From a virus: 64,000 bases of DNA. The notes beneath the pieces are model-generated. The model did not search any database, had not been told where the DNA came from, and worked only from the letters and a program-made list of their open reading frames with translations. Location: UHGV virus genome UHGV-0180032; one strand, 5' to 3'. Below are positions 4,092 to 64,000 of the stretch, piece after piece; the stretch's first letter is position 1, and each line of letters opens with the position of its first letter. Both the position numbers and the translations under genes were made by a program.

Positions 4092-4134
4092 CCTACCGCC
4101 CGATTCTATGGGCGGTAGGTGTTTTATTTTTTTT
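4092..4134 (+). terminator. intrinsic terminator
   Basis: 10-bp perfect stem cctaccgccc/gggcggtagg, 8-nt loop, then T-rich run tgttttatttttttt. Confidence 0.65.
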
Positions 4135-4150: not shown

Positions 4151-4714
4151 GTGGCCACATCTTACGTACCTGATTTGAGTCTGACCTCAGCAGAGCTAGT
4201 GGTCGCTTTAATCAATCATGATAACGGGTTACAGCTTACACTAAACGAAATCCGTATTAGCGGAACTGTAACAAACCCATCCCCAACAACTTCGCGACGT
4301 AACACTATCACCGAAATCAGTAAAATCAGAAAACCGGATGGTGCGACTGTTGTGGTTTACTACGACAGACTCGATGCCGATGAGGTATTAACGTCCGAAC
4401 CTATTTTGATTTCGTTAGACGGTACCGAAGCGAACATTCGTGATGTTCTTAGTGTTGTAAATGAATACTGCGGTACGAACTTACAACCTGAGGACTTACG
4501 TGCCTCAGATATTACTTCAGGTAATGATCCTATTGCTATTAACGTTGCTGACGATTCTCCTGCCTGGATGAATGCGTTTATGGTGACGTTGTTTGATAAA
4601 ACCGAACGTGCGTTAGCGAACGAAGAAGATGAAATCTTCTGCATCGGTGACGATAGCGTTCTTACATTCGAGGTTACAGATGGCGACAGCACTGAAGAAG
4701 ACGAGACTCCATGA
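4151..4714 (+). CDS. hypothetical protein, member of an intragenomic paralog family (YYDRL...NLQPEDL motif)
   Basis: Track ORF, GTG start after ggaggg SD; clear similarity to 14372..14884 product. Confidence 0.55.
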   Translation: MATSYVPDLSLTSAELVVALINHDNGLQLTLNEIRISGTVTNPSPTTSRRNTITEISKIRKPDGATVVVYYDRLDADEVLTSEPILISLDGTEANIRDVLSVVNEYCGTNLQPEDLRASDITSGNDPIAINVADDSPAWMNAFMVTLFDKTERALANEEDEIFCIGDDSVLTFEVTDGDSTEEDETP

Positions 4715-5141
4715 GCTTGAAAGCTACGCAGGCACACCCCAAGGCGGGGTACTGCTGTATAGCAAAGACAATAAAGAATATAAAATTGACGTTGATAAGT
4801 TAGCCCCGGTTGCGACAGTCACCACGGTTAACGGTTCGAATAATGCCGCCACGATGGATTTCAATACCAGCACTGACATTATTCTGGTGTTAAACGATCC
4901 TAACACTACAGTGACGTTCGCAGCCCTTACCAACGTTGCGGAAAATACCCGTTTCGAAGTAATGCTAACGATTAAGCAAGGAACAGGGGCGAATAAAGTA
5001 ACTTGGCCTGAAAACGTTAAGTGGCCTCACGGTGCACAACCGGTTTTATCCTACGCGGCAAATGCGGAAGACACTCTGTCGCTTTATACCCTTGATGGGG
5101 GTGCCACCTGGAAAGGTTCTCTTCTTGCAGCGGGTTACTAA
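4680..5141 (+). CDS. small protein homologous to the N-terminal module of the long tail fibre
   Basis: Track ORF 4629..5141 trimmed to ATG 4680 (gagg SD); N-terminus MATALKKTRLHELESYAGTPQGGVLLYSKDNKEYK aligns with N-terminus of 8225..12850 product. Confidence 0.55.
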   Translation: MATALKKTRLHELESYAGTPQGGVLLYSKDNKEYKIDVDKLAPVATVTTVNGSNNAATMDFNTSTDIILVLNDPNTTVTFAALTNVAENTRFEVMLTIKQGTGANKVTWPENVKWPHGAQPVLSYAANAEDTLSLYTLDGGATWKGSLLAAGY

Positions 5142-5312
5142 ATGAGAAAACATTTTCAGCGTCACGCGATTAGCTACGCGTTATCGTTAGCTTACGGACA
5201 CCAATCCTTCGTTACCCGGAATACGGGAACGACTCACGACGCGCACAACGAACACTATATTCAAAACGAAGAAGGTGTTCTGTAGAATAACCGTCATTTC
5301 ATTGCTGACACT

Positions 5313-8147
5313 ATGGCGGAATACCAACCGAACGGGGATGCGACGACCGAGGGTCAGTCGTTACACGTTATCGGTTACTGCCACATGTATATCGCAACGA
5401 AAGACGAAAGATGGTTAGATGCGGCGAAACACGCCTGGGATGCGTACAATACGTACTTCTACGCCGGGCAGCCTATTCCAACCACACCCCAGCGTCGTAT
5501 TTGTAACTGGTTGGTAAACGGGAAAGAACCGGTATTAGCACATTACCCAATAAACCCTACGGAACCTACCCAAGGTGGGTATAAAAGCGTCCCTGTAAGG
5601 TTTACAAACGGACAGTGTAAAATACCGCATGGTGCACCGTTCTGGGGAGAGTATTTGGATACCTTTACGTTTGCGCATCGTGGTCACCCTGCCTGGGAAG
5701 CCATTAACGCAGACGTACAGATTATCAAGGAAGACAAAGAAGGGTCAATTAATTGGGAAGATGTTTTAACTCACGTTATTACCAATCCTGATAAACCCTA
5801 CGAGGCCATAGCCTGGGTCGATTGGCCTACGTTGTTAAACAACGCTACAGGGTACACCCCGCTTTGGGGTGGTAGCGCAACAAAAGGCCCTAAATACGAC
5901 GCTGACTGGATAATTGCCTGGACAGGTAACAAAATCCAGGATAGTGAGATTATTGAGACAGGATTAGCAGACGCTGATAAAGGTACCGTACAGTTAAAAG
6001 ACACGCAGTTAAACGGTGTCTATTTGATTAACTACGCGGTAAAACTGCCTGTCGAACACGGGGGTTACGAGTTTAAACGTAACGAACCGTGGCACAACCG
6101 TCCGGTCCACACACCGTTCTTAGGGACGAAAAACCAATACGGCAACGCTGCTGATGCTGAACTGTGGTTTATTGACGCCTGTTATTTGCTGTGGCGAATC
6201 ACGGGTGAAGAGAAATACAAACAAGCATTAGACTGTACTTTCTACACAGCACACGAGTACACGTATATTGATGCAGTAGATAAATTCTTCCGTCGTTCTA
6301 CCGCTGCGGAAACACCGTTTACGGATGGTATTTCGTACGACTTCAATTACCCAGACACCGTAAGTGCTACCTACGGCCGTGATGAGAATGGGGATATTAC
6401 CATCCATGTGCCTGAAGCGGCACAACACTTTATGGAGCAGAAAGCGGTTCGATTCAGGATTAACAAAGACTCCAAACTACGTGTCACGTACGGCGGGGTT
6501 TGTAAGAACGGTGATCCTGTCTACTGCAAAGCAATGGTAAACATTAACCCTGCGAAAGGTGATACCGAGGAAGTAAACTGGTACGGTTTAACCTTACCTC
6601 GGTCTACGGTAAATGCCGTTAAGCAGTACGATGTTGACTTAGGCCAACTTGCTCGTATTACCACCCCAGAAGGGGAAGATTACCTGATAGCTGATGACCG
6701 CGCGTGTTCGGACTATGGTGGTTGTACGTGGGAAGAACGTTTTGAGGACAGCATTTACGACGGTCGCGCGGGTACCGTTATAGAAGCTGAATTTCCTGAT
6801 GACAGTGCCGGGTTTATTATCGGGTTCTGGTTAACCGCTGAAGAGAAGGTAAAACCGGTTTCTATTGTCTACCGTGCGGACGCGGATTTTAACCTGCGTT
6901 TAGCTGACAGTGATAACTGGCGTTGGTGGTGGATGTTACCCAACACAAACAACGAATGGCGTCAGGTAACGTTAAATCCGGATGATGCTACACTTTCCGG
7001 TTATCAGCCAGACCACACAGACGCTGACCCTAAACCGGCAGCACCGAATTTCGATAAGGTGGATCAGGTCACGATTCTCCCTGACTCTACGGTTGACCAT
7101 GCGCACTTTGCCTACTATTGCGTTAACAATGTTCCACCGCTCTTTAATAAAGACGACGGTTATATTCTCACCTTCCGTATTGGGTTACGCGGTGGTGGAG
7201 AGTATGATGCGAAGGTCGGCGACTGTACGATCAAAGATTACCGATTAGATTCGTTAGCGTATTGTCCGGGTACGATACCGTTCTCCAACAACTATTCAGA
7301 AGGTTCAGAACAGTTAGGTGCCTGGCACGGGATGCCTTATCCGGGTTATCAGTATCCGTTTATGTACACTATCCACAAAGACGACCGGTATAAGCTGTGG
7401 TTAGATAACCAGATTCAGTTCATGTACGACTCGCAGTTGGCTTACCAACGGCAGCTCGGTGAATTAGGGCCTGGTTGTGCTGCGTATATTTGGAACCGTT
7501 GGGACAACTACACCTACGGAGAAGCGGATACCTGGACAACGTTCCATTGGAGCGACGACCATCCGTGGCCAGGGTACCAACCGCGCGCGTTTCATGCGGC
7601 GTGTCGGTGCTGGTACGAACTGAAACTGCGAGGTAAAGAGGTTCCTGAGGCGTTAACAAACTATATTGAAAACTGGGTGAATTGGCTAGGTGGGTTTGTG
7701 GATCGGTTTAACGGACACACCCCTAACGAGTTCCCTACAGCACCGAATAAACCCGTTTGGGTGGAAGATGACTTCAACGCACATATGTGTGCGTTGTGGT
7801 TAGCAGGGTGTTGTTGGGCGTTACTCGCCGGTGCAACGAATCCGAACTACGAAAAAGTGGTTAATGCGGCAATTAAGGAGTTAGGTGAAGGGTTTACGAT
7901 TACCTCAATTCCGAATAAGCCGATTAACGGGGCGTGGTCTCCAGCCGCTCGAGAGTCTTCCGATAACGGTATGGCTTTTGGGTTCTACAGTGGGGAAGCG
8001 TTCCGTGCGTTAGGTCTCTACGTTACTTACAAAACCTACGGGGCCAACGCTAATATTTATCGTGACTTAGCGATTAGTGACCACAGTCAAGCGGTCTTAG
8101 ACGTTACGTTAACGATAGAAGACGATGCATTAAAACCAGAGCAATAA
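5313..8147 (+). CDS. large protein (944 aa), possibly tail-associated; function unknown
   Basis: Long uninterrupted ORF; Trp/aromatic-rich C-terminal half; sits between fibre N-module ORF and long tail fibre gene. Confidence 0.65.
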   Translation: MAEYQPNGDATTEGQSLHVIGYCHMYIATKDERWLDAAKHAWDAYNTYFYAGQPIPTTPQRRICNWLVNGKEPVLAHYPINPTEPTQGGYKSVPVRFTNGQCKIPHGAPFWGEYLDTFTFAHRGHPAWEAINADVQIIKEDKEGSINWEDVLTHVITNPDKPYEAIAWVDWPTLLNNATGYTPLWGGSATKGPKYDADWIIAWTGNKIQDSEIIETGLADADKGTVQLKDTQLNGVYLINYAVKLPVEHGGYEFKRNEPWHNRPVHTPFLGTKNQYGNAADAELWFIDACYLLWRITGEEKYKQALDCTFYTAHEYTYIDAVDKFFRRSTAAETPFTDGISYDFNYPDTVSATYGRDENGDITIHVPEAAQHFMEQKAVRFRINKDSKLRVTYGGVCKNGDPVYCKAMVNINPAKGDTEEVNWYGLTLPRSTVNAVKQYDVDLGQLARITTPEGEDYLIADDRACSDYGGCTWEERFEDSIYDGRAGTVIEAEFPDDSAGFIIGFWLTAEEKVKPVSIVYRADADFNLRLADSDNWRWWWMLPNTNNEWRQVTLNPDDATLSGYQPDHTDADPKPAAPNFDKVDQVTILPDSTVDHAHFAYYCVNNVPPLFNKDDGYILTFRIGLRGGGEYDAKVGDCTIKDYRLDSLAYCPGTIPFSNNYSEGSEQLGAWHGMPYPGYQYPFMYTIHKDDRYKLWLDNQIQFMYDSQLAYQRQLGELGPGCAAYIWNRWDNYTYGEADTWTTFHWSDDHPWPGYQPRAFHAACRCWYELKLRGKEVPEALTNYIENWVNWLGGFVDRFNGHTPNEFPTAPNKPVWVEDDFNAHMCALWLAGCCWALLAGATNPNYEKVVNAAIKELGEGFTITSIPNKPINGAWSPAARESSDNGMAFGFYSGEAFRALGLYVTYKTYGANANIYRDLAISDHSQAVLDVTLTIEDDALKPEQ

Positions 8148-8164
8148 TAACCCGCTTATAAAAT

Positions 8165-8195
8165 ATTGGGGGGGGGGTAAGCTACTCCCCCCGAT
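8165..8195 (+). promoter_or_regulatory. G-tract hairpin element, copy 1
   Basis: att-G10-taagctact-C6-gat; 30 nt upstream of tail fibre ATG. Confidence 0.4.
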
Positions 8196-8224
8196 CTTTA
8201 GCTCCCGATAGAGAACTTAATATC

Positions 8225-11200
8225 ATGGCAAAAGCGGTAAAGAAAATACGATTACATAATCTTAGACCATATACCGGTGATATCGGTGAAGGCGTTTTAC
8301 TTTTCTCCAAGGATGAGAAAGATTATAAGTTACCAGTCCGTGAGATCATTGCGGATATTGACACCGTACGTAATGCGGTGGCTGAAGCACAAACAGCAGC
8401 AACACAATCACAAGAAGCTGCAACGCAGGCTACACAAGCAAAGAATTTAGCAGAAACCGCAAAACAACAAACTGACACCGTTGCGGCGACGGTTGCTCAA
8501 CAAGCGCAAACTGTAACCGAAAAAGCAACTGAAGTCGGTACAAAACACACTGAAGTGTTAGCCGCGAAAACGGCGGTAGATACCCAGGTTGTGTCCGTTA
8601 ATGAGAAAGCGCAAGCGGTAGCGGCAAGTGAGGCCAACGTCACACTAGCAGAGACTGCCGTTACGAAGAAAGCAGAAGCCGTCGCCACACAAGCCGGTCA
8701 AGTCGAACAGTCGCTTACAGCAGTTAACGAAGCTGTCGCGTCGGTAGAGTCGTCAAAAGCCTCTGTAGAAGCTACAGCAACGCAAGTTACCACAGACAAA
8801 GAAACCGCAGAGAATGCGGCAACGCGTTCTGAGGCAGCCGCTAAGCGCGCAGAAGAAATCGCTGCAAAAGGTAACGTTGATGCATCAACGACCAGTAAAG
8901 GTATCGTTAAGCTTAATAATACCCTAAGCAGTGACTCTGTTACTGAAGCGGCTACGCCGTCAACGGTTAAGCAGTTAAATGAAGATTTGCAGTTAAAAGC
9001 AAACCGTCACAACCCAACATTTACTGGTACGGTAAAAGCACCAACTCCTGCTTCGGATTCTAACGACACGAGTGTCTCAACGACTGCATGGGTACGACAA
9101 GCGATTGCTGAATTAGTGGATTCTTCACCCGAGACGTTAGATACGTTATCAGAAATTGCAGCTGCGTTAGGGAACGATCCTAACTTTGCGACAACGATGA
9201 CGAACCAACTCGCGGGTAAGCAGCCGTTAAGTCCGTTACTGACAGCGATTGCCGCAGTCACCACCGCTGCAAACAAACTCCCTTACTTTACCGGTAGTAA
9301 TCAGGTAGGGTTAGCGGATTTCACCTCGACTGCGCGTGATTTGTTAGCGAAAGGGTCGACGACCGATATCATTAACTTCCTGGGTTTGAAAACCACCGTC
9401 GATAAAGCTGCGGGTGCTATGCAACGCAGTTCTAACGGTGCCGATATTCCCGACAAAGTCACCTTCGCGAAGAACATCGGGTTGTCAGCAGAGACGTACC
9501 TGAAGTACAACGGCGATATGGCGATAGACGCGGACCTTAATACCTTCGGTCCAGTCGAAGCGTCTATGGGTATTTGGTCGAAAGGCACATCTACAAACGC
9601 AACGATTGCAAAGAACTTCCCGGAAGAAAACGCAGTCGGTTATTTAGAGGTTTTTAGAGCAGGTAACTACGGCGGGAGTCAGCGTTTCACTGTACGTAAC
9701 GGTAACGTCTATACACGTCATCTTACTGCTTCATGGAATGGGACAAACGGCCCTTGGTCAGAATGGCGTAATGTTGCCGGTTCCGCCAGAACGTTGAACG
9801 AACAAAATAATCTGAATGACTTAGGCGGTGAACCCGCACTGGGTGTTTGGAGAAACAGTACAAGTACGTTAGCAACAGCTGCGCTGAATTATCCTGAGGA
9901 AGGTTCCTTTGCCCAGGGTGTATTAGAGGTCCTCAAAGGTGGTAACTACAGTTACACACAACGCTACACTACCCGTAGAGGTAATGTGTACGTTCGTTGT
10001 CTACAGGCCACGTGGGACGCTTCTAATCCGCAGTGGGAAGAATGGCGCTGTGTCGGTCATCAATCTGTCAGCGCATATTTCGAAGGCGATCTCGACACGT
10101 TAACTTCGCCTAACCGTTATAGCATTACCGACAAAGCGACTAACGTTCCTTTAATCGACGGCACTAAAATTATCGGTATCTTGGATGTCAGTCGTCGTTT
10201 TGATAACGTCAGTGTCGAACAAAAATTCACCTCGTTTGGTTCCGGTAGTAAAACCACAGGTCGCGTTTTCACTCGTGTATTCTCCGGCCAATCAAACGGT
10301 AAATGGAGTGAGTGGCGAGAGGTTTTCACCTCGTATTCACTTCCGTTAGTTTTAGGCATTGGTGGTGAAGCTGCTAAGGTTGACCCGTTAGACTGGCAAA
10401 CTTACGACTTCGTTCCTGGTCAGATGCTAACGACACCGTTGAACACCATGAAAAACATTCCTGCGGGAATGGATTGGGGTGTGATTGACGGTAACTTAGT
10501 TAACATCCTTGTCGGGCCGTCTGACGACACTGGTACCGGTCGGAGTATGTTGGTTTGGCGTAGCACGGTGTCTACTGCCAACTATCGCTTCTTTGCGGTA
10601 CGTGTCGCTGGTGAGAAGGGTAGCCGTACGATTACGCCACGTCAGATGCCTGTGTTGAACGCAGCGCACACCTGGGCAGAGAAACAGACCTTTGCAAAAG
10701 GGTTAGCAGGTGAGTTAACCGGCAATGCTTCAACCGCCACTAAGCTCCAGACTGCGCGTAGAATTGGCGGGGTCGCTTTCGACGGCAGCGGTGACATTAA
10801 CCTCCCCGGTGTTAACCAACAGGGTAATCAAAACACCACGGGTAACGCCGCGACAGCCACTAAACTTCAAACCGCCAGAAATATTAACGGTGTGAGGTTC
10901 GATGGCTCTGGAGACATCAATATCAACACCTTGGTAGGTCGTGGACGGGTTACCGCTCTGACCGGGTCGAACAAGGGTACACCTGGTATCCAGATGTACG
11001 AAGTTTACAATAATGGTTATCCAACCGCTTATGGTAACTTGCTGCACTTAGGTGGTGCTAGTGCCGTAGGCGAAGGTGAACTGTTAATCGGTTGGTCTGG
11101 CACCAGCGGTGCGCACGCGCCAGTTTTTATTCGTAGTCGCCGCGATACGGCTGACGCGCCGTGGTCAGACTGGGCACAAGTTTATACTGCCCGTGACAGT

Positions 11201-12850
11201 ATTCCTGGCGTAAATGCCACCGGTAATCAAGATACGACCGGAAACGCCGCTACCGCAACCAAATTGAAAACCGCTCGCAGAATCGGTGGTGTTACCTTTG
11301 ACGGTACTGGGGATATCAATTTACCGGGCGTAAACCAGCAAGGCAACCAGAACACGACAGGTAATGCTGCAACAGCGACTAAACTTCAGACTGCCCGAAG
11401 TATCGGTGGTGTGGCTTTTGATGGTACGAAAGACATCAGTTTACCTGGGGTAAACCAAACGGGGAATCAGTCAACTACGGGGAACGCTGCTACTGCAACG
11501 AAGTTGCAGACAGCGCGTACCATTAACGGTATCGAATTTGACGGTACTAAAAATATTGAACTGACCCCAAGAGCCATAGGCACGATTAACTCAACAACCA
11601 TGTCTTTTAATGGTGGTGCCGGATGGTTCAAGCTGGCAACTGTAACCATGCCACAAGCCAGTTCCGTGGTTTACATAAGCATGATTGGTGGTGCAGGGTA
11701 TAACGTTGGCTCCCCGCAACAAGCTGGTATCTCTGAGCTGGTCCTGCGTGCAGGAAATGGGAACCCAAAAGGTATTACTGGTGCTTTATGGCGACGGACC
11801 TCTGTTGCTTTTACTAATTTTGCATGGGTGAATACATCTGGTGACACCTATGACATTTATGTAGAAATAGGTAATTACGCAACAGGTGTTAATATCCAAT
11901 GGGATTATACAAGTGACGCCACAGTACAAATCTATACATCGCCAACTTATACATCAGATAAACCAGCTGGTCTGACTGATGGAACGGTATATGTCGTTTA
12001 CAGTTCACACATTAAACCTACTGCGAATGATGTTGGGGCGTTGCCATTATCCGGCGGCCAATTGAATGGAGCTTTGGGTATTGGAACCGCCAATGCTTTA
12101 GGTGGGAACTCCATAGTTTTAGGGGATAATGACACCGGCCTTAAGCAGAACGGGGATGGCGTTCTAGATGTTTACGCCAATAATGCTCACGTTTTACGCT
12201 TTACGAGTGGGGCTGTTCAAAGCAATAAACCTCTCAACGTTACTGGGGATATAAGAACCAATACTTGGGTTTATGCAAATAGATATTCTATTAACAGCAA
12301 CTCAGGTTCTTGGATTAGCATGAGAGACCATAACGTTATTTTTGGTCTTAATGCGGTAGGAACTAGTTCTGCTCAGGCTTTGTTAAGACAAGACCATGCT
12401 GATAGGAAATATTTTGTTGGTGGTTTAGGTAACAGTCAATTCGGCTTTTACATGATAAACAACTCACGTACTGATAATGGCACCGATGCTAATGCTTATT
12501 TGCAAAATGACGGTACTTGGGTTTGTGGTGGGAACGGTAACTTTAACGACGTTTATATACGTTCAGACGCCCGGCTGAAAAGTAATTTCTCTCCAATAAC
12601 TAATGCATTGGAGAAGGTAAAGAAATTGTCAGGTTTAATATACGACAAAAAGGAGAACTTTAAATCCACTAATGTTCATCGTGAGGCTGGCGTTGTAGCA
12701 CAGACCTTACAAAAAGTGTTACCTGAAGCAGTTTCTACTTATAAAGACGCTAATGGTGAGGACGTTTTGACGGTCTCTAATTCTGCTCAAATAGCTTTAC
12801 TTATTGAGGCAATAAAGGAGTTGGCGGAGATAATTGAGACCAAGTTATAA
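8225..12850 (+). CDS. long tail fibre protein with C-terminal intramolecular-chaperone (S74-like) domain
   Basis: 1541 aa; Ala/Thr/Gln-rich N-terminal region; five copies of a ~40-aa repeat; C-terminal SDARLKSNF...LIEAIKEL motif typical of auto-cleaving fibre chaperone domains. Confidence 0.9.
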   Translation: MAKAVKKIRLHNLRPYTGDIGEGVLLFSKDEKDYKLPVREIIADIDTVRNAVAEAQTAATQSQEAATQATQAKNLAETAKQQTDTVAATVAQQAQTVTEKATEVGTKHTEVLAAKTAVDTQVVSVNEKAQAVAASEANVTLAETAVTKKAEAVATQAGQVEQSLTAVNEAVASVESSKASVEATATQVTTDKETAENAATRSEAAAKRAEEIAAKGNVDASTTSKGIVKLNNTLSSDSVTEAATPSTVKQLNEDLQLKANRHNPTFTGTVKAPTPASDSNDTSVSTTAWVRQAIAELVDSSPETLDTLSEIAAALGNDPNFATTMTNQLAGKQPLSPLLTAIAAVTTAANKLPYFTGSNQVGLADFTSTARDLLAKGSTTDIINFLGLKTTVDKAAGAMQRSSNGADIPDKVTFAKNIGLSAETYLKYNGDMAIDADLNTFGPVEASMGIWSKGTSTNATIAKNFPEENAVGYLEVFRAGNYGGSQRFTVRNGNVYTRHLTASWNGTNGPWSEWRNVAGSARTLNEQNNLNDLGGEPALGVWRNSTSTLATAALNYPEEGSFAQGVLEVLKGGNYSYTQRYTTRRGNVYVRCLQATWDASNPQWEEWRCVGHQSVSAYFEGDLDTLTSPNRYSITDKATNVPLIDGTKIIGILDVSRRFDNVSVEQKFTSFGSGSKTTGRVFTRVFSGQSNGKWSEWREVFTSYSLPLVLGIGGEAAKVDPLDWQTYDFVPGQMLTTPLNTMKNIPAGMDWGVIDGNLVNILVGPSDDTGTGRSMLVWRSTVSTANYRFFAVRVAGEKGSRTITPRQMPVLNAAHTWAEKQTFAKGLAGELTGNASTATKLQTARRIGGVAFDGSGDINLPGVNQQGNQNTTGNAATATKLQTARNINGVRFDGSGDININTLVGRGRVTALTGSNKGTPGIQMYEVYNNGYPTAYGNLLHLGGASAVGEGELLIGWSGTSGAHAPVFIRSRRDTADAPWSDWAQVYTARDSIPGVNATGNQDTTGNAATATKLKTARRIGGVTFDGTGDINLPGVNQQGNQNTTGNAATATKLQTARSIGGVAFDGTKDISLPGVNQTGNQSTTGNAATATKLQTARTINGIEFDGTKNIELTPRAIGTINSTTMSFNGGAGWFKLATVTMPQASSVVYISMIGGAGYNVGSPQQAGISELVLRAGNGNPKGITGALWRRTSVAFTNFAWVNTSGDTYDIYVEIGNYATGVNIQWDYTSDATVQIYTSPTYTSDKPAGLTDGTVYVVYSSHIKPTANDVGALPLSGGQLNGALGIGTANALGGNSIVLGDNDTGLKQNGDGVLDVYANNAHVLRFTSGAVQSNKPLNVTGDIRTNTWVYANRYSINSNSGSWISMRDHNVIFGLNAVGTSSAQALLRQDHADRKYFVGGLGNSQFGFYMINNSRTDNGTDANAYLQNDGTWVCGGNGNFNDVYIRSDARLKSNFSPITNALEKVKKLSGLIYDKKENFKSTNVHREAGVVAQTLQKVLPEAVSTYKDANGEDVLTVSNSAQIALLIEAIKELAEIIETKL
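10722..11575 (+). repeat. phage tail-fibre repeats (about five copies) inside the fibre CDS
   Basis: Repeated unit GNQ(N/D)TTGNAATATKLQTAR-I-G(V)-FDG-GDI-LPGVNQ seen directly in the translation. Confidence 0.6.
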
Positions 12851-12854
12851 TTAT

Positions 12855-12877
12855 CAGTGAGGGGGAACCCCTCACTG
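12855..12877 (+). promoter_or_regulatory. intergenic stem-loop between fibre and adhesin genes
   Basis: 10-bp perfect stem cagtgagggg/cccctcactg, loop gaa; no T-run after it. Confidence 0.35.
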
Positions 12878-12897
12878 ACTCACAAGTACGTTATAAG

Positions 12898-13689
12898 GTG
12901 GTTATTTTGTCTGTATCAGCGACTCCCGGATGGATTGGTTCTTCAGCAAAAGCTGAAGCTGGTGACGGTTGGATGTCTGGCGCGATGCGCACACTTGGTG
13001 TGCCGGTTCCAGGCTGGATGTCGCAATTGGCGGGAAAATCAAAAGAGGCTCAGTATTCGATCGGGGCTAATCACAATTACAATAAAGATACGCTTATTAA
13101 CTATTTACGTTCCATAGGCTCTACTGCTGTCGTTGTGACCATTACAGGGGATTTAGTGTCTTATAGTAGCGGGGTTCCTTGTTTAGAGTTCCCTAGCAAT
13201 CTTCCAAATTCGTATATTACCCTCATCATCAATCCTGGGGTTACAGTATACGGCAGAGGAGGCAACGGCGGTTCTAACTCACCAGGCGGTGCAGGTGGAA
13301 CCGCAATACAGAACGGAATAGGAAACAGACTGCGTATAACCAACCGTGGCGCTATTGCCGGAGGCGGTGGCGGCGGTGGCGGCGGTAACAGGGGTAGACT
13401 AGTATTTGGTGGTGGCGGTGGTCGCCCATTCGGTGCTGGTGGGTCTTCCTCTCATATGAGTTCCGGTGCGGCTGCTGGTACTATTTCCGCTCCTGGTAGA
13501 GGATCTGTTGGTGAGGGGTCTCTTAGTGCATATACAGGCGGTTCGGGTGGTAATGTCGGTGCTGGTGGAGGAAGATGTAATACTCATGGTAACGGTACAG
13601 AATATAACGGCGGAGCAGCTGGTGCAGCTGTTACTGGTAATGCGCCAAGATGGGACGCAGTAGGTGCAATATACGGTTCACGTGTTTAA
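12898..13689 (+). CDS. gp38-like tail-fibre tip adhesin (T2-type, glycine-rich)
   Basis: N-terminal PGWIGSSAKAEAGDGWMS...PGWMSQLAG; poly-Gly blocks (GGGGGGGGG, FGGGGGRPFGAGGSSSHMSSG); C-terminal TGNAPRWDAVGAIYGSRV; matches my recollection of T2/T6 gp38. Confidence 0.75.
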   Translation: MVILSVSATPGWIGSSAKAEAGDGWMSGAMRTLGVPVPGWMSQLAGKSKEAQYSIGANHNYNKDTLINYLRSIGSTAVVVTITGDLVSYSSGVPCLEFPSNLPNSYITLIINPGVTVYGRGGNGGSNSPGGAGGTAIQNGIGNRLRITNRGAIAGGGGGGGGGNRGRLVFGGGGGRPFGAGGSSSHMSSGAAAGTISAPGRGSVGEGSLSAYTGGSGGNVGAGGGRCNTHGNGTEYNGGAAGAAVTGNAPRWDAVGAIYGSRV

Positions 13690-13705
13690 TTAAAAAAGAG
13701 GGTAG

Positions 13706-14218
13706 ATGGGGGTAGCGTCAGGATGGGTCGGTTCTTCGGCCAAGAGTGAAACGGGCGAACAATGGATGAGCGCTGCTGGTAGTAAATTAGGATTGGGTAG
13801 ACCTTTTATGATGAGCCAAATGGTAGGCAGGTCTGTAGGTTGCAAAATAGCAACAGCTTATTATAAAACGTCAAATACTGATAAGGTAGAGAACTGGGGT
13901 GCTGTCGGAGCCGATTGGCCGTTGGTAGATAAGAACAAAGGAACGCTTTCTGGTGCCTCGAACTGTGGCTTAGGACGTTTAGTGGGGATCGTACTTACGC
14001 AAGCTCACTACGTTGCCGGTGTTCCGCCTACTGCCGCTTTATATATTTCTGGCGGACGGGCGAGTAACATTACGGTGACGGTTGGTGGTGTTTCGCAAGC
14101 ATTTACTTACAATAGTGTTACTAACGGTTTTCACTATTATTGGCAAGGAACACCGAGTTCGGCCTTTATAGCGGCAATGAAGAAGACGGGTGTTACACAA
14201 GATTTGAAAATTAGCTAA
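13706..14218 (+). CDS. second gp38-like protein: conserved N-terminal module with a different, non-glycine-rich C-terminal domain
   Basis: N-terminus GWVGSSAKSETGEQWMS aligns with 12898 product; remainder unrelated. Confidence 0.6.
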   Translation: MGVASGWVGSSAKSETGEQWMSAAGSKLGLGRPFMMSQMVGRSVGCKIATAYYKTSNTDKVENWGAVGADWPLVDKNKGTLSGASNCGLGRLVGIVLTQAHYVAGVPPTAALYISGGRASNITVTVGGVSQAFTYNSVTNGFHYYWQGTPSSAFIAAMKKTGVTQDLKIS

Positions 14219-14303
14219 CTAATTGGGGTAAAACGATAACCAAAATTAGTAAAATAAGAATTCGTAATTCAATAATTTTTTATAGAAAGGTTGATTTATT
14301 AGA

Positions 14304-14354
14304 ATCGGGGGGGGGGTGAAATGTTTTTAGCCAACATTTTATGTCTCCCCAATC
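14304..14354 (+). promoter_or_regulatory. G-tract hairpin element, copy 2
   Basis: atc-G10-...-CCCC-aatc with an internal sub-hairpin; just upstream of SD/GTG of 14372 gene. Confidence 0.35.
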
Positions 14355-14371
14355 ATAGGAGGTAACCATAC

Positions 14372-14884
14372 GTGGAACAATTCACGCCTGATTTGTCCTT
14401 AACTTCACTTAACATGGTTATTTCACTGGTTAACCATGACCTCCAGCTCGACTTGCAAGAGAACGAGGTTGAAGTCAGCGACGTAAAGACCAGTGACGAA
14501 ATGGATCGTGACACCACTGCTGTTGTAAAGATAAAACGTCCCGGTAACAGAACGTTACAAATCTATTACAACCGTTTAACCGCAGAACGTTGGTTAAACC
14601 AGCAACCTATTCTGGTACAAGTAGCTGGAGAGGGGTTTAACACACACGATTTAATCGACGGGATTAACGCAGCCTGTGGCAGTAACCTGCAACCTGAAGA
14701 TCTTCAGGACGATTCATTTACAGTAGGAAAAGACGCTGTAACGTTACAGGTATCACCTAACTCCCTAAGTTATAAAGGCCAATTCTCTGTTTTGGTTTTT
14801 GGTAACGGTGAAGAAGCCGCAGTAACAAAAGATGACAACCTAATCGTTACCGCAGATAATCGCGTCTTAACCTTTGGTGGTTAA
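14372..14884 (+). CDS. hypothetical protein, paralog of 4151..4714 product
   Basis: Track ORF, GTG start after aggagg SD; shared PDLSLTS...LVNHD...YY(D/N)RL...CG(T/S)NLQPEDL. Confidence 0.55.
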   Translation: MEQFTPDLSLTSLNMVISLVNHDLQLDLQENEVEVSDVKTSDEMDRDTTAVVKIKRPGNRTLQIYYNRLTAERWLNQQPILVQVAGEGFNTHDLIDGINAACGSNLQPEDLQDDSFTVGKDAVTLQVSPNSLSYKGQFSVLVFGNGEEAAVTKDDNLIVTADNRVLTFGG

Positions 14885-15029: not shown

Positions 15030-15074
15030 TCAGATATATATTACCTAGAGGAGAGCGAAATTTACATTCGCTCT
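15028..15074 (+). promoter_or_regulatory. conserved promoter-like box plus stem-loop, copy A
   Basis: tctcagatatatattacctagaggagag followed by hairpin agagcg/cgctct; near-identical box at 18331 and 54431. Confidence 0.45.
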
Positions 15075-17764: not shown

Positions 17765-18050
17765 ACTAATTCGGCTGTTTAAACGTAAGAAATGTCCTGT
17801 CTGCGAAGTCAATGAAAAGGTTATTGCTAAGCAAGATGAATTAATTAAAGTACAGGAAAAATCGCTCAGGGAACAGCTAGAGCTTTATTACAAGCTTTGT
17901 GCTATTACCGAGTACATCTGCGAGGAGAAATTGCCAAAAGAAGCTGGTTTTTTAATACTAGAGAAAGCCACAAAAGATTGTCGTGCTCAGGTCGATATGT
18001 ATAAACAAGTTTTACGGCGAGAATTATGGGGGAAAATCAATGAAGCGTGA
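17754..18050 (+). CDS. hypothetical protein with CPVCE motif
   Basis: Track ORF 17709..18050 trimmed to ATG 17754 (ggtggtga SD-like). Confidence 0.5.
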   Translation: MVFKLIRLFKRKKCPVCEVNEKVIAKQDELIKVQEKSLREQLELYYKLCAITEYICEEKLPKEAGFLILEKATKDCRAQVDMYKQVLRRELWGKINEA

Positions 18051-18321
18051 AACAGTTGTATTTCGTAGCAACGGTGATGTGGTTTTGTATCGTGGTAAGA
18101 AACGTATTCGTACGTTAGAATACCGTGAAGCAAAACGTTTTGTTGAAGAGTGTGCATGGTTAATGCATTACGAAGGGAACTACCGAGCTATTTTAGAAGC
18201 ACCGCGTCTAGAACGTGCGGTTGCGCAGATGGCAATAGGTAATCCTAAGAACTGTTACCTGGCACGTAAGCCAAAATACCTACAGCGGCTTTCGTTAGGC
18301 AGCTTTATTGCTGGGTTTTAA
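18040..18321 (+). CDS. hypothetical protein
   Basis: Track ORF 17983..18321 trimmed to ATG 18040 (gggga SD, overlaps upstream stop). Confidence 0.5.
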   Translation: MKRETVVFRSNGDVVLYRGKKRIRTLEYREAKRFVEECAWLMHYEGNYRAILEAPRLERAVAQMAIGNPKNCYLARKPKYLQRLSLGSFIAGF

Positions 18322-18330
18322 TAAAAATAA

Positions 18331-18373
18331 TTTCAGATATATATTACCTAGGTGAGAGTTCAGCTACTCTCAC
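18331..18373 (+). promoter_or_regulatory. conserved promoter-like box plus stem-loop, copy B
   Basis: tttcagatatatattacctaggtgagag with hairpin gtgagagt/actctcac; upstream of 18404 gene. Confidence 0.45.
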
Positions 18374-18946: not shown

Positions 18947-19420
18947 ATGTTTAGCTTAGAATTCAACAACAACGTTCATGTCGCTTTCCATTCAGTAGAA
19001 AAAACCTATAAAACTAAAGATCTGTTTACTGGCAGAAGCGATGCTTTTTCGCTGATTAAGAATGGATGGAGAAAAAGCAAAGAGCTGAAACGTGATTCAA
19101 ACCTTTACATTATTGAACGTTTAACTGTAACCGACGATCTTGTCACTGCACGTTATGACTTTGTTGTAATGGACGATTTCATCCCGTTAGACAAACTGGT
19201 TATCTTGGCTGACAATGGGGAACGCTACGAGGCGGGCGAGAACGGTGAACGTTCATTTACTAATGACGGTAAACTAAAAGTTCGCCATTCTGTAATGGCA
19301 GTTTGCTACGATGGTGAATGGCTAGGATCTCTGAATAAAGGATTGGATTTGATTGACGCCGATGATTTAGAAAATTTCGCCGATGTTTTCTCCAGCTATC
19401 TGTTTGAATATAAGTGGTGA
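18947..19420 (+). CDS. hypothetical protein (157 aa)
   Basis: Track ORF; SD aaggaa. Confidence 0.55.
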   Translation: MFSLEFNNNVHVAFHSVEKTYKTKDLFTGRSDAFSLIKNGWRKSKELKRDSNLYIIERLTVTDDLVTARYDFVVMDDFIPLDKLVILADNGERYEAGENGERSFTNDGKLKVRHSVMAVCYDGEWLGSLNKGLDLIDADDLENFADVFSSYLFEYKW

Positions 19421-19425
19421 GTTCG

Positions 19426-19857
19426 ATGAGAAAAGAACTAAAATCAGAGTTACGTGATTACATTCGTAAATACCCAGCCAGTATTCCGGTACTGGCTTCA
19501 CTCTCTTTATCGGGTATGGACCTTAATACCTTAACGGTAGAAAAATTCCACGAAGTGGTGAAGTCGTCGTATCAAATTGTTACCGATATGTCAGTGCGGA
19601 AACGTGCTGACTACCCAGACGGTGATTTCGGTACAGAGATGTTCACGGACTACGCAGTTGCGTATCTGATGGGACGTCACTTTATCGATAAACTCAATAC
19701 GGCTGTAGAAGGAGAAACCGTTACGGAAATTGTCAATGCTTGGCAACAACGTATTGTGAGTGACGCTTACTGTCGTCAAGCCTTAAAGAAAATGTCGGCA
19801 GTAGCATTAACCAATGACCAACGTGCTTTAGAGTTCCTTAAGCACAACTACGAATAA
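19426..19857 (+). CDS. hypothetical protein, paralog of 21121..21552 product
   Basis: Track ORF 19414..19857 trimmed to ATG 19426; shared LRDYIRKYP...YP-G-(D/E)-G motifs with 21121 product. Confidence 0.55.
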   Translation: MRKELKSELRDYIRKYPASIPVLASLSLSGMDLNTLTVEKFHEVVKSSYQIVTDMSVRKRADYPDGDFGTEMFTDYAVAYLMGRHFIDKLNTAVEGETVTEIVNAWQQRIVSDAYCRQALKKMSAVALTNDQRALEFLKHNYE

Positions 19858-25080: not shown

Positions 25081-25115
25081 TACCCTCCTGCTAAGCAGGA
25101 GGGTATTTATTATTC
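25081..25115. terminator. bidirectional terminator between convergent genes
   Basis: Stem taccctcctgc/gcaggagggta with T-rich flanks on both strands. Confidence 0.6.
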
Positions 25116-25589: not shown

Positions 25590-25859
25590 AAACTCACCCT
25601 TATTAAAATTAAGAAAAAATAATTTTTTCAGGTTAGCGCTTACTGCCAACCGTCATATCTATATTTTAGGAAATGTCTAAAATAACATTCTTATGCAATC
25701 CACCCCTACCACTAACGAGGTAAAAAAAGATGGCTAAAGCCTTCAAACAACAGCTCAATTCGTCTGGCTTCTCAAGACCTGATCGGTGCCAAAGCTTACG
25801 AACAAGCCGGTAGCCTCGATCTGGAAAACTCCGTCATCGTAACCAAACTGAACGAAGAA

Positions 25860-26096
25860 ATGGTTACTAAAGGTTATGTCGATGACGCATTCGCCGAAAG
25901 CGAACTGTCCATTGAGAAATCCGAAGGCGACAGCGGTGCTAAAGTCTACACTGTCAAAGTAAGCGAAGGCCACATCAAATTCCTGGCTGGTACTATTGCC
26001 GTCTTCACTTATTCCAACCCAGCTCCTGAGAAGGTAGCACTGAGCGGTCTGGAAGGTGAACTTGATGGCTTCACTGCACCGGGTGTCGGTGGCTAA
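25860..26096 (+). CDS. hypothetical protein (78 aa), C-terminal GELDGFTA motif; possibly truncated or frameshifted
   Basis: Track ORF; shares C-terminal motif with 26161 product; upstream frame stays open without a start and an SD-preceded ATG at 25730 lies in another frame. Confidence 0.4.
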   Translation: MVTKGYVDDAFAESELSIEKSEGDSGAKVYTVKVSEGHIKFLAGTIAVFTYSNPAPEKVALSGLEGELDGFTAPGVGG

Positions 26097-26100
26097 TTAA

Positions 26101-26126
26101 ATCGGGGGGGGGTGACCTCCCCCGAT
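26101..26126 (+). promoter_or_regulatory. G-tract hairpin element, copy 3
   Basis: atc-G9-tgacct-C5-gat palindrome directly after stop of 25860 ORF. Confidence 0.4.
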
Positions 26127-26160
26127 ATTTCTCTAACACGTATTATTAAGGACCTAGATA

Positions 26161-38745: not shown

Positions 38746-38839
38746 CGTAAAGACTCCTACTTTTAAATAAAATGGATACCCCTCCCCATTACAGGGAGGG
38801 GTTACCTACGGACACACAACTGCCCGCAGGCAGCCTGTC

Positions 38840-50140: not shown

Positions 50141-50193
50141 ATCAGATATATTTTACTTAGGTGAGTAGGGGCTGAACTCGCACTTCAGCCCCT
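50141..50193 (+). promoter_or_regulatory. degenerate copy (D) of promoter-like box plus stem-loop
   Basis: atcagatatattttacttaggtgag followed by perfect 10-bp hairpin aggggctgaa/ttcagcccct; lies in divergent intergenic region. Confidence 0.4.
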
Positions 50194-54430: not shown

Positions 54431-54473
54431 ATCTCAGATATATATTACTCAGGTGAGAGTTAAGATTAACTCT
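54431..54473 (+). promoter_or_regulatory. conserved promoter-like box plus stem-loop, copy C
   Basis: atctcagatatatattactcaggtgagag with hairpin agagtta/taactct; upstream of secreted-protein gene block. Confidence 0.45.
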
Positions 54474-63497: not shown

Positions 63498-64000
63498 GCA
63501 TCGTTGTAACCGATTGGTATAAAGGTATCACTAAGGCTACCCAACTTACTGCCCAGGACGTATACAGCATCGTTCGTAGCAGTAGCGAAGACCAGATAAA
63601 GTCCGACGAAGACTTTGCAACGCGTCATGAGTTTTACGATGCCCTTAAAACGGCTTTCGGTGATGACGAAGAAGAAGGTTTAGAGTTTGACTGGAATGTC
63701 AACCTTGCCTTGTTGTGGATTTGCGGATTACGTCCGAGTGTGAAAGACACGGAGCAAGGGAAAGTTCTGTTGTGGCACTACACCGGTAAATACAATCCGA
63801 ACCAGGTCTTTAAAGAAGCGTATATGGAAGCCACTGTAGAGTTACAGAATCTGCTGTTGGGTGAGAACACCTACTGCCAGCGTAGCTTCCTGACGATTCT
63901 GGAGAAACTGGCGACTACGCACAAAATCTGGCGACAGGCAGATGCCCCTGAACACATCTTCGTTCTGGAATTTGCTGTGATTCCAAACCAACCGTTCTTC
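63494..64000 (+). CDS. hypothetical protein, 3'-truncated by window end
   Basis: Frame open from 63479 to window end; TTG at 63494 preceded by aaggag SD; no ATG available. Confidence 0.45.
   Translation, partial: MSIVVTDWYKGITKATQLTAQDVYSIVRSSSEDQIKSDEDFATRHEFYDALKTAFGDDEEEGLEFDWNVNLALLWICGLRPSVKDTEQGKVLLWHYTGKYNPNQVFKEAYMEATVELQNLLLGENTYCQRSFLTILEKLATTHKIWRQADAPEHIFVLEFAVIPNQPFF

Follow-up and report, generated by a model that had tools for sequence, protein, structure and literature searches.

Three intergenic G-run hairpins of an uncultured phiKZ-type jumbo phage as candidate leaky terminators or intercistronic elements

The transcripts of phiKZ-type jumbo phages offer the closest described parallels to the elements studied here. 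In phiKZ, a conserved terminator is present in 61 copies, each a C-run/G-run hairpin with a short TTAT tail (5'-BCCYCCCCHWWDGGGRRGGBYTTATKYYGT-3'; PMC10914365), and in 201phi2-1, where terminator sequence motifs recur across the genome, 52 of the 132 mapped transcript 3' ends were predicted to be canonical intrinsic terminators (PMC11512511). In this study, we have explored three intergenic hairpins that start with a run of Gs in a 64,000-nucleotide stretch of viral DNA (the window), which is, on sequence comparison, from an uncultured SPN3US/Asesino-like (phiKZ-type) jumbo phage. These hairpins share with the phiKZ and 201phi2-1 motifs the phage group, with its own multisubunit RNA polymerases, as well as C-run and G-run arms with one pyrimidine/purine interruption, a short T-containing tail and the recurrence of a sequence family. 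The key distinctions are that the polarity is reversed, with the G arm first and the C arm second, and that the copies number only 2-3 in a genome of ~225 kb, whereas phiKZ has 61. None of the three has the phiKZ-type motif itself (CCYCCCC-loop-GGGRRGG followed by YTTAT, in many copies), their tails reading GATCTTT, GATATTT and AATCAT; the window also carries C-first hairpins of the phiKZ type, for example at 38778-38802 and 25081-25105. With intrinsic terminators in general, they have in common a sense-strand G-C-rich stem-loop past a stop codon and, at sites 1 and 3, a U-containing tail, but they differ in their U-tracts, which are short and broken at sites 1 and 3 and missing at site 2, in having a homopolymeric G-run, paired through G·U wobble, as the 5' arm, and in the lack of a recognisable promoter before the next gene. 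Two more distant systems also invite comparison. The PeSLs (promoter-early stem-loops) of T4-type phages, reportedly described by Arbiol, Comeau and Krisch in 2010, are likewise small repeated intergenic stem-loops bordering variable modules, and one homology breakpoint here falls exactly at site 2; unlike PeSLs, our elements have no associated promoter, few copies and one junction, and the evidence favours an RNA role. Homopolymeric-tract contingency loci resemble them in the G9-11 tract whose length differs among related genomes, although the tract lies here outside both coding sequence and promoter spacer, has no predicted structural effect and is not conserved.

The three sites are all on the + strand, at 8165-8195 (site 1: ATT, G10 at 8168-8177, TAAGCTACT, C6 at 8187-8192, GAT), 14304-14353 (site 2: ATC, G10 at 14307-14316, TGAAATGTTTTTAGCCAACATTTTATGTCT with the middle TGAAATG...ATGTCT, C4 at 14347-14350, AAT) and 26101-26126 (site 3: ATC, G9 at 26104-26112, TGACCT, C5 at 26119-26123, GAT). 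An earlier note on this DNA had proposed such a three-site architecture, located between co-directional genes, and the sequence bears out both points, with the small deviation that site 2 ends in AAT and not in GAT: all three sites are intergenic, in the gaps 8147/8225, 14218/14372 and 26096/26161 between co-directional + strand ORFs, and the hairpins start 18, 86 and 5 nt, respectively, after the upstream stop codon. On both strands of the window, runs of at least 7 or at least 8 Gs are found at these three loci only (G10, G10 and G9). G8 has 8 overlapping matches in 3 loci against 0.65 expected, a value reached in 0 of 100 shuffles, and 28 of the 29 matches to G5-N(3-33)-C4 in the window (3.35 expected) are at the three sites, which are a real and non-random feature of this DNA. 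The same elements recur in independent assemblies from other samples (3300029126 and 3300018473), and also in other contigs of 3300045988; therefore, they are not poly-G sequencing artefacts. The caution that run lengths could be sensitive to sequencing stands for length differences of 1-2 between metagenome assemblies, which may be errors, but does not extend to the elements themselves. The family is also not spread genome-wide: our search for the strict motif, which took in whole related contigs of 151 and 225 kb plus an IMG/VR scan, found it only at sites 2 and 3 in these whole contigs. Sites 2 and 3 have 16-17 identical bases in common (AATC-Gn-TGA). Recent duplication was ruled out as the source of this likeness, the proteins encoded downstream of the two sites having no detectable similarity.

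In each case, the G-run is the 5' arm of a stable hairpin, and the 3' arm contains CUCCCC, the U of which is in a G·U wobble. At site 1, the core stem of 10 bp joins GGGGGGGGUA (8170-8179) to UACUCCCCCC (8183-8192) around the 3-nt loop AGC and ends 30 nt before the ATG at 8225, with a weak, U-containing tail, GAUCUUUAGCUCCCG, at 8193-8207. Site 2 is a composite hairpin with an outer stem of 7 bp (GGGGGGG/UCUCCCC, 14308-14314/14344-14350) and an inner stem of 10 bp closed by a 7-nt loop (14316-14325/14333-14342); it includes four G·U pairs, is not followed by a U-tract and ends 7 nt before the AGGAGG SD of the GTG at 14372. The site 3 hairpin (26101-26126) reads AUCGGGGGGGG-GUGA-CCUCCCCCGAU, with 11 bp and a 4-nt loop, and precedes the U-rich tail AUUUCUCUAA (26127-26136). 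Predicted energies in the sense and antisense orientations are -17.7 to -19.5 and -14.4 to -14.9 kcal/mol at site 1, -23.0 and -12.6 kcal/mol at site 2, and -22.4 and -17.0 kcal/mol at site 3 (folding z = -3.66). The sense RNA is thus far stabler than the antisense because of the G·U pairs, and this predicted asymmetry points to a function in the sense transcript, at the RNA level, rather than in duplex DNA. The palindromes reported previously are therefore genuine coding-strand hairpins at all three sites when folded, and the RNA-level attenuation or processing role suggested for them fits both their sense-strand location and the strand asymmetry. Rfam covariance models gave 0 matches at the gathering threshold in the whole window, and the sole match in 8000-14500 was at chance level (E = 0.41). 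Between the long-tail-fibre and the first adhesin genes, at 12854-12878, there is also a perfect 11-bp hairpin, TCAGTGAGGGG-GAA-CCCCTCACTGA, without a U-tract; it is another hairpin-only intercistronic element.

How close are these structures to intrinsic terminators? The three hairpins have stable G-C-rich stems and loops on the transcribed strand (within about 5-14 bp and loop 3-8), and all are downstream of stop codons and co-oriented with the genes of a + strand block. Site 3 was the top terminator-like match of our consensus scan of 25-45 kb and is followed by ATTTCTCT (5 T in 8). Site 1, whose tail GAUCUUUAG has 4 T of 8, falls short of the scan's U-tract rule (at least 5 U in 8 nt) and is marginal. 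Tail scores were -3.02 at site 3, -2.18 at site 1 (-2.79 with an extended stem) and -1.8 at site 2, as compared to -2.75 to -5.9 for the clear canonical terminators of the window; since 22% of random window positions score -2.5 or better, the tails are weak evidence. The statement that none of the sites precedes a clean T-run consequently holds for site 2, which has no U-tract, and for the weak tail of site 1, but not for site 3, the best match of the scan. To call them "not standard terminators" was an overstatement: site 3 conforms to the consensus of a stem and a U-rich tail, and the equivalent positions in related phages carry canonical terminators. Asesino and SPN3US have textbook intrinsic terminators after the orthologous tail-protein gene (equivalent to site 1), and Erwinia phage Caitlin has AAGGAGC-TTCG-GCTCCTT followed by a T-run between tandem GELDGF paralogs (equivalent to site 3). 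At the paralogous position of site 2, terminators lie directly upstream of the gp122 orthologues of SPN3US and Asesino, about 25 nt before the start codon, and the window's own gp122-like gene also has one upstream, at 4093-4118. In a census of gaps, a G/C-rich hairpin, with or without a U-tract, was present in almost all those of the + strand block that are longer than 60 nt, and the three G-run hairpins fill three of those gaps.

Taken with the results described below, we consider it probable that the G-run hairpins are ordinary leaky terminators/attenuators or 3'-end intercistronic hairpins in a multi-fibre locus. They would belong to the sense-strand RNA hairpins of the terminator/intercistronic class that punctuate the late structural operons of phiKZ-type (Chimalliviridae-like) jumbo phages, and would mark gene 3' ends inside a locus of multiple tail-fibre modules and virion paralogs. 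Sites 1 and 3, with a strong G-C stem and a short imperfect U-tract, could act as leaky intrinsic terminators (attenuators), such that part of the transcription would pass into the next gene. Site 2 would have lost its U-tract; its hairpin alone, which immediately precedes the next ribosome-binding site, could define a 3' end, stabilise the mRNA or direct processing. The surrounding promoters have a bearing on this proposal. A 23-nt promoter-like motif, CAGATATATATTACYYAGGTGAG, occurs in four copies (0 expected) on the + strand of the window, at 15031-15053, 18334-18356, 50143-50165 and 54435-54457; every copy directly precedes a short hairpin, two (15031 and 54435) are just past strong terminators, and a related motif, AGATAGATGTTATCTCAGTGAA, occupies the same place after terminators in SPN3US and Asesino. 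By its sequence and position, it is probably a phage-RNAP promoter with a 5' stem-loop, and we take it to resemble the phiKZ early promoter. This motif is absent from the three G-run gaps; likewise, no sigma-70-like match abuts site 1 or 2, and the only match past site 3, at 9/12, is at chance level. The next genes start 18-35 nt downstream of the G-run hairpins and, as no recognised promoter is located in between, substantial read-through would be needed to express them, unless there is an unrecognised late promoter. If the leaky-terminator reading is correct, the sites would determine how strongly successive tail-fibre modules are expressed relative to each other in a phage with several host-range cassettes, one of them borrowed from T-even phages. 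The poly-G "palindromes" would then be variants of phiKZ-type terminator/intercistronic hairpins and not a new regulatory device, and the main value of recognising them would be in annotation.

Close relatives of the phage keep the fold and not the homopolymer, a structural conservation seen in 3-5 sequences per site. Their 5' arms read GGGGGAGGU, GGGGAGGU or GGAGGGGG instead of an uninterrupted G-run, and sites 1 and 2 retain the hairpin with GGGGGAGG, GGGGAGG or GGAGGGGG arms in place of the homopolymer. Site 1 is GGGGGAGGU-GCUU-ACCUCCCCC in contig 078609 and GGGGAGGU-GCUUU-ACCUCCCC in contig 113438, so that the stem changes length on both arms in concert, from GGGGGAGGU/ACCUCCCCC to GGGGAGGU/ACCUCCCC; the tail in these relatives is AGAUCUUUUAG, an upstream AUAAAAA can pair with a downstream UCUUUUAG, and the layout is A-tract/hairpin/UCUUUU. 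At site 2, contig 113438 has another sequence with the same two-part fold (GGAGGGGGUAAGAUGUU-GCUAGA-AACAUUUCACCCCCUACC; -23.3 kcal/mol, z = -3.4), and in 078609 and 18473_104, where the site is conserved, a U to C change turns a G·U into a G-C pair. The site 3 stem is kept in three relatives with G-runs of 10, 10 and 11 and a variable loop; it is absent from a fifth relative, which has a different small hairpin in its other inter-paralog gap. Formal covariation is minimal (0-1 double changes), but these counts, from MAFFT-based RNAalifold, are uninformative for hairpin variants that differ by indels, and each variant was folded separately. Run length does differ among relatives: the counts are 9, 10, 10 and 11 Gs for site 3, whereas site 2 has 10, 9 and 10. 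When we folded the hairpins with runs of 5 to 13, stability reached a plateau at about G8-9 and was flat to G13; therefore, the observed variation from 9 to 11 would not tune the structure. From this comparison, the uninterrupted G9-10 run looks incidental and does not seem to be the functional unit. Such homopolymers could have a simple origin, in which an A to G mutation in a 5' arm of the GGGGAGG type converts the A-U pair to G·U, leaving the unchanged U as the "CUCCCC" signature; slippage would then add Gs that enlarge the loop only. We infer this order of events, A to G before slippage, from the variants described above.

These data also bear on other explanations. One is that the G-run acts as a phase-variable switch, in which slippage would alter attenuation and vary downstream fibre expression across the phage population, as implied by the previous suggestion of a slippage-prone homopolymer that tunes expression. 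Run length does vary among relatives and all three sites precede fibre-associated or virion-paralog genes, but we judge this very unlikely given that predicted energy is the same from G9 to G13, that added Gs enlarge the loop only, that the arms are interrupted in close relatives at sites 1 and 2, and that the small length differences may be sequencing error. A signal in double- or single-stranded DNA (a cruciform, a G-quadruplex, a nuclease or packaging site) seems to us scarcely credible. The elements are palindromic with ATCG...CGAT flanks, and the G11 of one relative could in principle form a two-tetrad quadruplex; against this, the G·U (G·T) pairs create a strong strand asymmetry that does not fit a symmetric cruciform, the fold is conserved and the sequence is not, and every copy is co-oriented with transcription. 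The G-quadruplex was rejected specifically, a single G9-10 run being too short for an intramolecular form and its length not being conserved. A more serious candidate is that the hairpins do not terminate at all and are purely mRNA stability or processing structures, which would block 3'-5' exonucleases or be RNase III-type sites and so segment the half-lives of a polycistronic late mRNA. This role is plausible, especially for site 2, which like the neighbouring hairpin at 12854-12878 has no U-tract, and which forms a 17-bp composite helix with a bulge, near the length that RNase III requires. It would also accommodate the missing promoter motif after the three sites, where downstream genes need read-through, and 201phi2-1 has many mapped 3' ends without a canonical terminator (PMC11512511). 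As an explanation for the whole set, we nonetheless find it unlikely, because sites 1 and 3 have retained U-rich tails and relatives carry clear intrinsic terminators at the equivalent positions.

The location of the sites raises the further idea of recombination hot-spots that, like PeSLs, would provide micro-homology as repeated intergenic hairpins for swaps of tail-fibre and adhesin modules. Site 1 precedes a 1541-aa long tail fibre (ATG at 8225), after which come two gp38-like adhesins that resemble RB49-type T-even phages at the DNA level (RB49 gp38, ~80% DNA identity), and this cassette of long tail fibre and gp38-like adhesins, which sites 1 and 2 bracket, is absent from SPN3US and Asesino. 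The G-run of site 2 is the exact point from which the window is homologous to 078609 and 18473_104; before it, the 3' half of the adhesin and the spacer are unrelated. AATC-Gn-TGA is common to sites 2 and 3. Yet no junction other than this one falls at a hairpin. No breakpoint lies at site 1: both its flanks are conserved and the left border of the cassette is inside the fibre gene, past a 41-aa anchor, and a cassette-flanking direct repeat at site 1 was rejected on the same grounds. At site 3, the upstream gene varies among relatives but is homologous. In addition, contig 113438 has the window's upstream flank at site 2 and nevertheless a diverged hairpin, there are only 2-3 copies per genome, and many phages have mosaic junctions in intergenic terminators without any special mechanism. 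We are accordingly quite sceptical of a hot-spot function. What pure structural selection does not explain is the common AATC-Gn-TGA of sites 2 and 3 in front of unrelated genes. The hairpins could form a small, sequence-specific RNA family (AAUC-Gn-UGA...CUCCCC), whose recognition by a phage factor, such as a processing protein or antiterminator, would coordinate alternative fibre modules, with the same elements serving as preferred crossover points for host-range cassettes between jumbo and T-even phages; we regard this extended scheme as doubtful.

The genes around the three sites also shed light on the evolution of this locus. The window matches IMG/VR contig UViG_3300045988_095954, with position 1 at 96016 of the contig, and position 64000 would lie ~8.4 kb past the contig's end (151,598 bp); on this alignment, another assembly of the same phage, either longer or with a different permutation, must be the source of the window. 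Upstream of site 1 is a gene for a 944-aa tail-associated protein with 76% identity to Asesino gp141 and 71% to SPN3US gp124, in a gene order syntenic with both phages. This gene (5142-8147) has an in-frame TAG at 5283-5285, which reads GVL*NNRHF where the relative 078609 has GVLSNNRHF (Ser); it splits the 1001-codon ORF of the relatives and leaves the 944-aa ORF from 5313. The TAG could be an amber mutation, a population variant or a sequencing error. The distal part of the long tail fibre resembles T-even phage counterparts, as do the adhesins, and at its N-terminus (8225-8350) there is a ~41-aa "anchor", MA..VKKIRLH.L...GVLL.SK..YKLP, which is also present in the gp123-like protein (4629-5141) and in an extra 206-aa protein of the relative 078609 (19169-19789 of its stretch). 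This common anchor suggests, from sequence, that a single attachment site takes several interchangeable fibre modules. The gp122-like gene at 4151 has a paralog, with 37% identity, in the gene after site 2 (GTG start at 14372), and site 3 separates two tandem members of a virion-paralog family ending in "GELDGF". The upstream member (25731-26096) is a pseudogene, frameshifted by an internal deletion past codon ~9, and its remaining ORF covers just the C-terminal 78 aa (25860-26096); the intact genes of relatives encode 176-190 aa.

Long G- or C-runs were also encountered outside these sites. A broader IMG/VR scan, for G9-T-N(3-33)-CTCCCC, had unrelated contigs among the matches listed. In unrelated phages of ~23-38 kb, ATCG(9/10)ATGTCTCCCCGAT is inside or at the end of a small Cys-rich ORF (e.g. 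positions 4796-4821, - strand), which adjoins DNA polymerase and primase-helicase genes; G9 and G10 there give different frames, one with a stop directly after the hairpin and the other with a ~70-aa product. Megablast of these ~30-kb phages against GenBank phages gave no match, and we judged their G9/G10 runs to be coincidental. A 238-kb jumbo phage (IMGVR_UViG_3300028886_000039) has the same palindrome, ATCG10TGAACCCTCCCCGAT, at 1441-1468 on the - strand and in the opposite orientation, 15 nt past an RNAP beta'-like gene with an ADFDGD motif, such that the C-run arm is the 3' arm relative to transcription. SPN3US has an intergenic C9 run at 87716-87724, just past a terminator and GTATTATGA and outside any hairpin. 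Finally, in the relative 078609 (18049-18060 of its stretch), the second adhesin gene starts with ATGGGGGGGGTA, a coding G8 run (MGGVASGW...), where the orthologue in the window encodes MGVASGW..., a difference of one in-frame Gly codon within the G-run.
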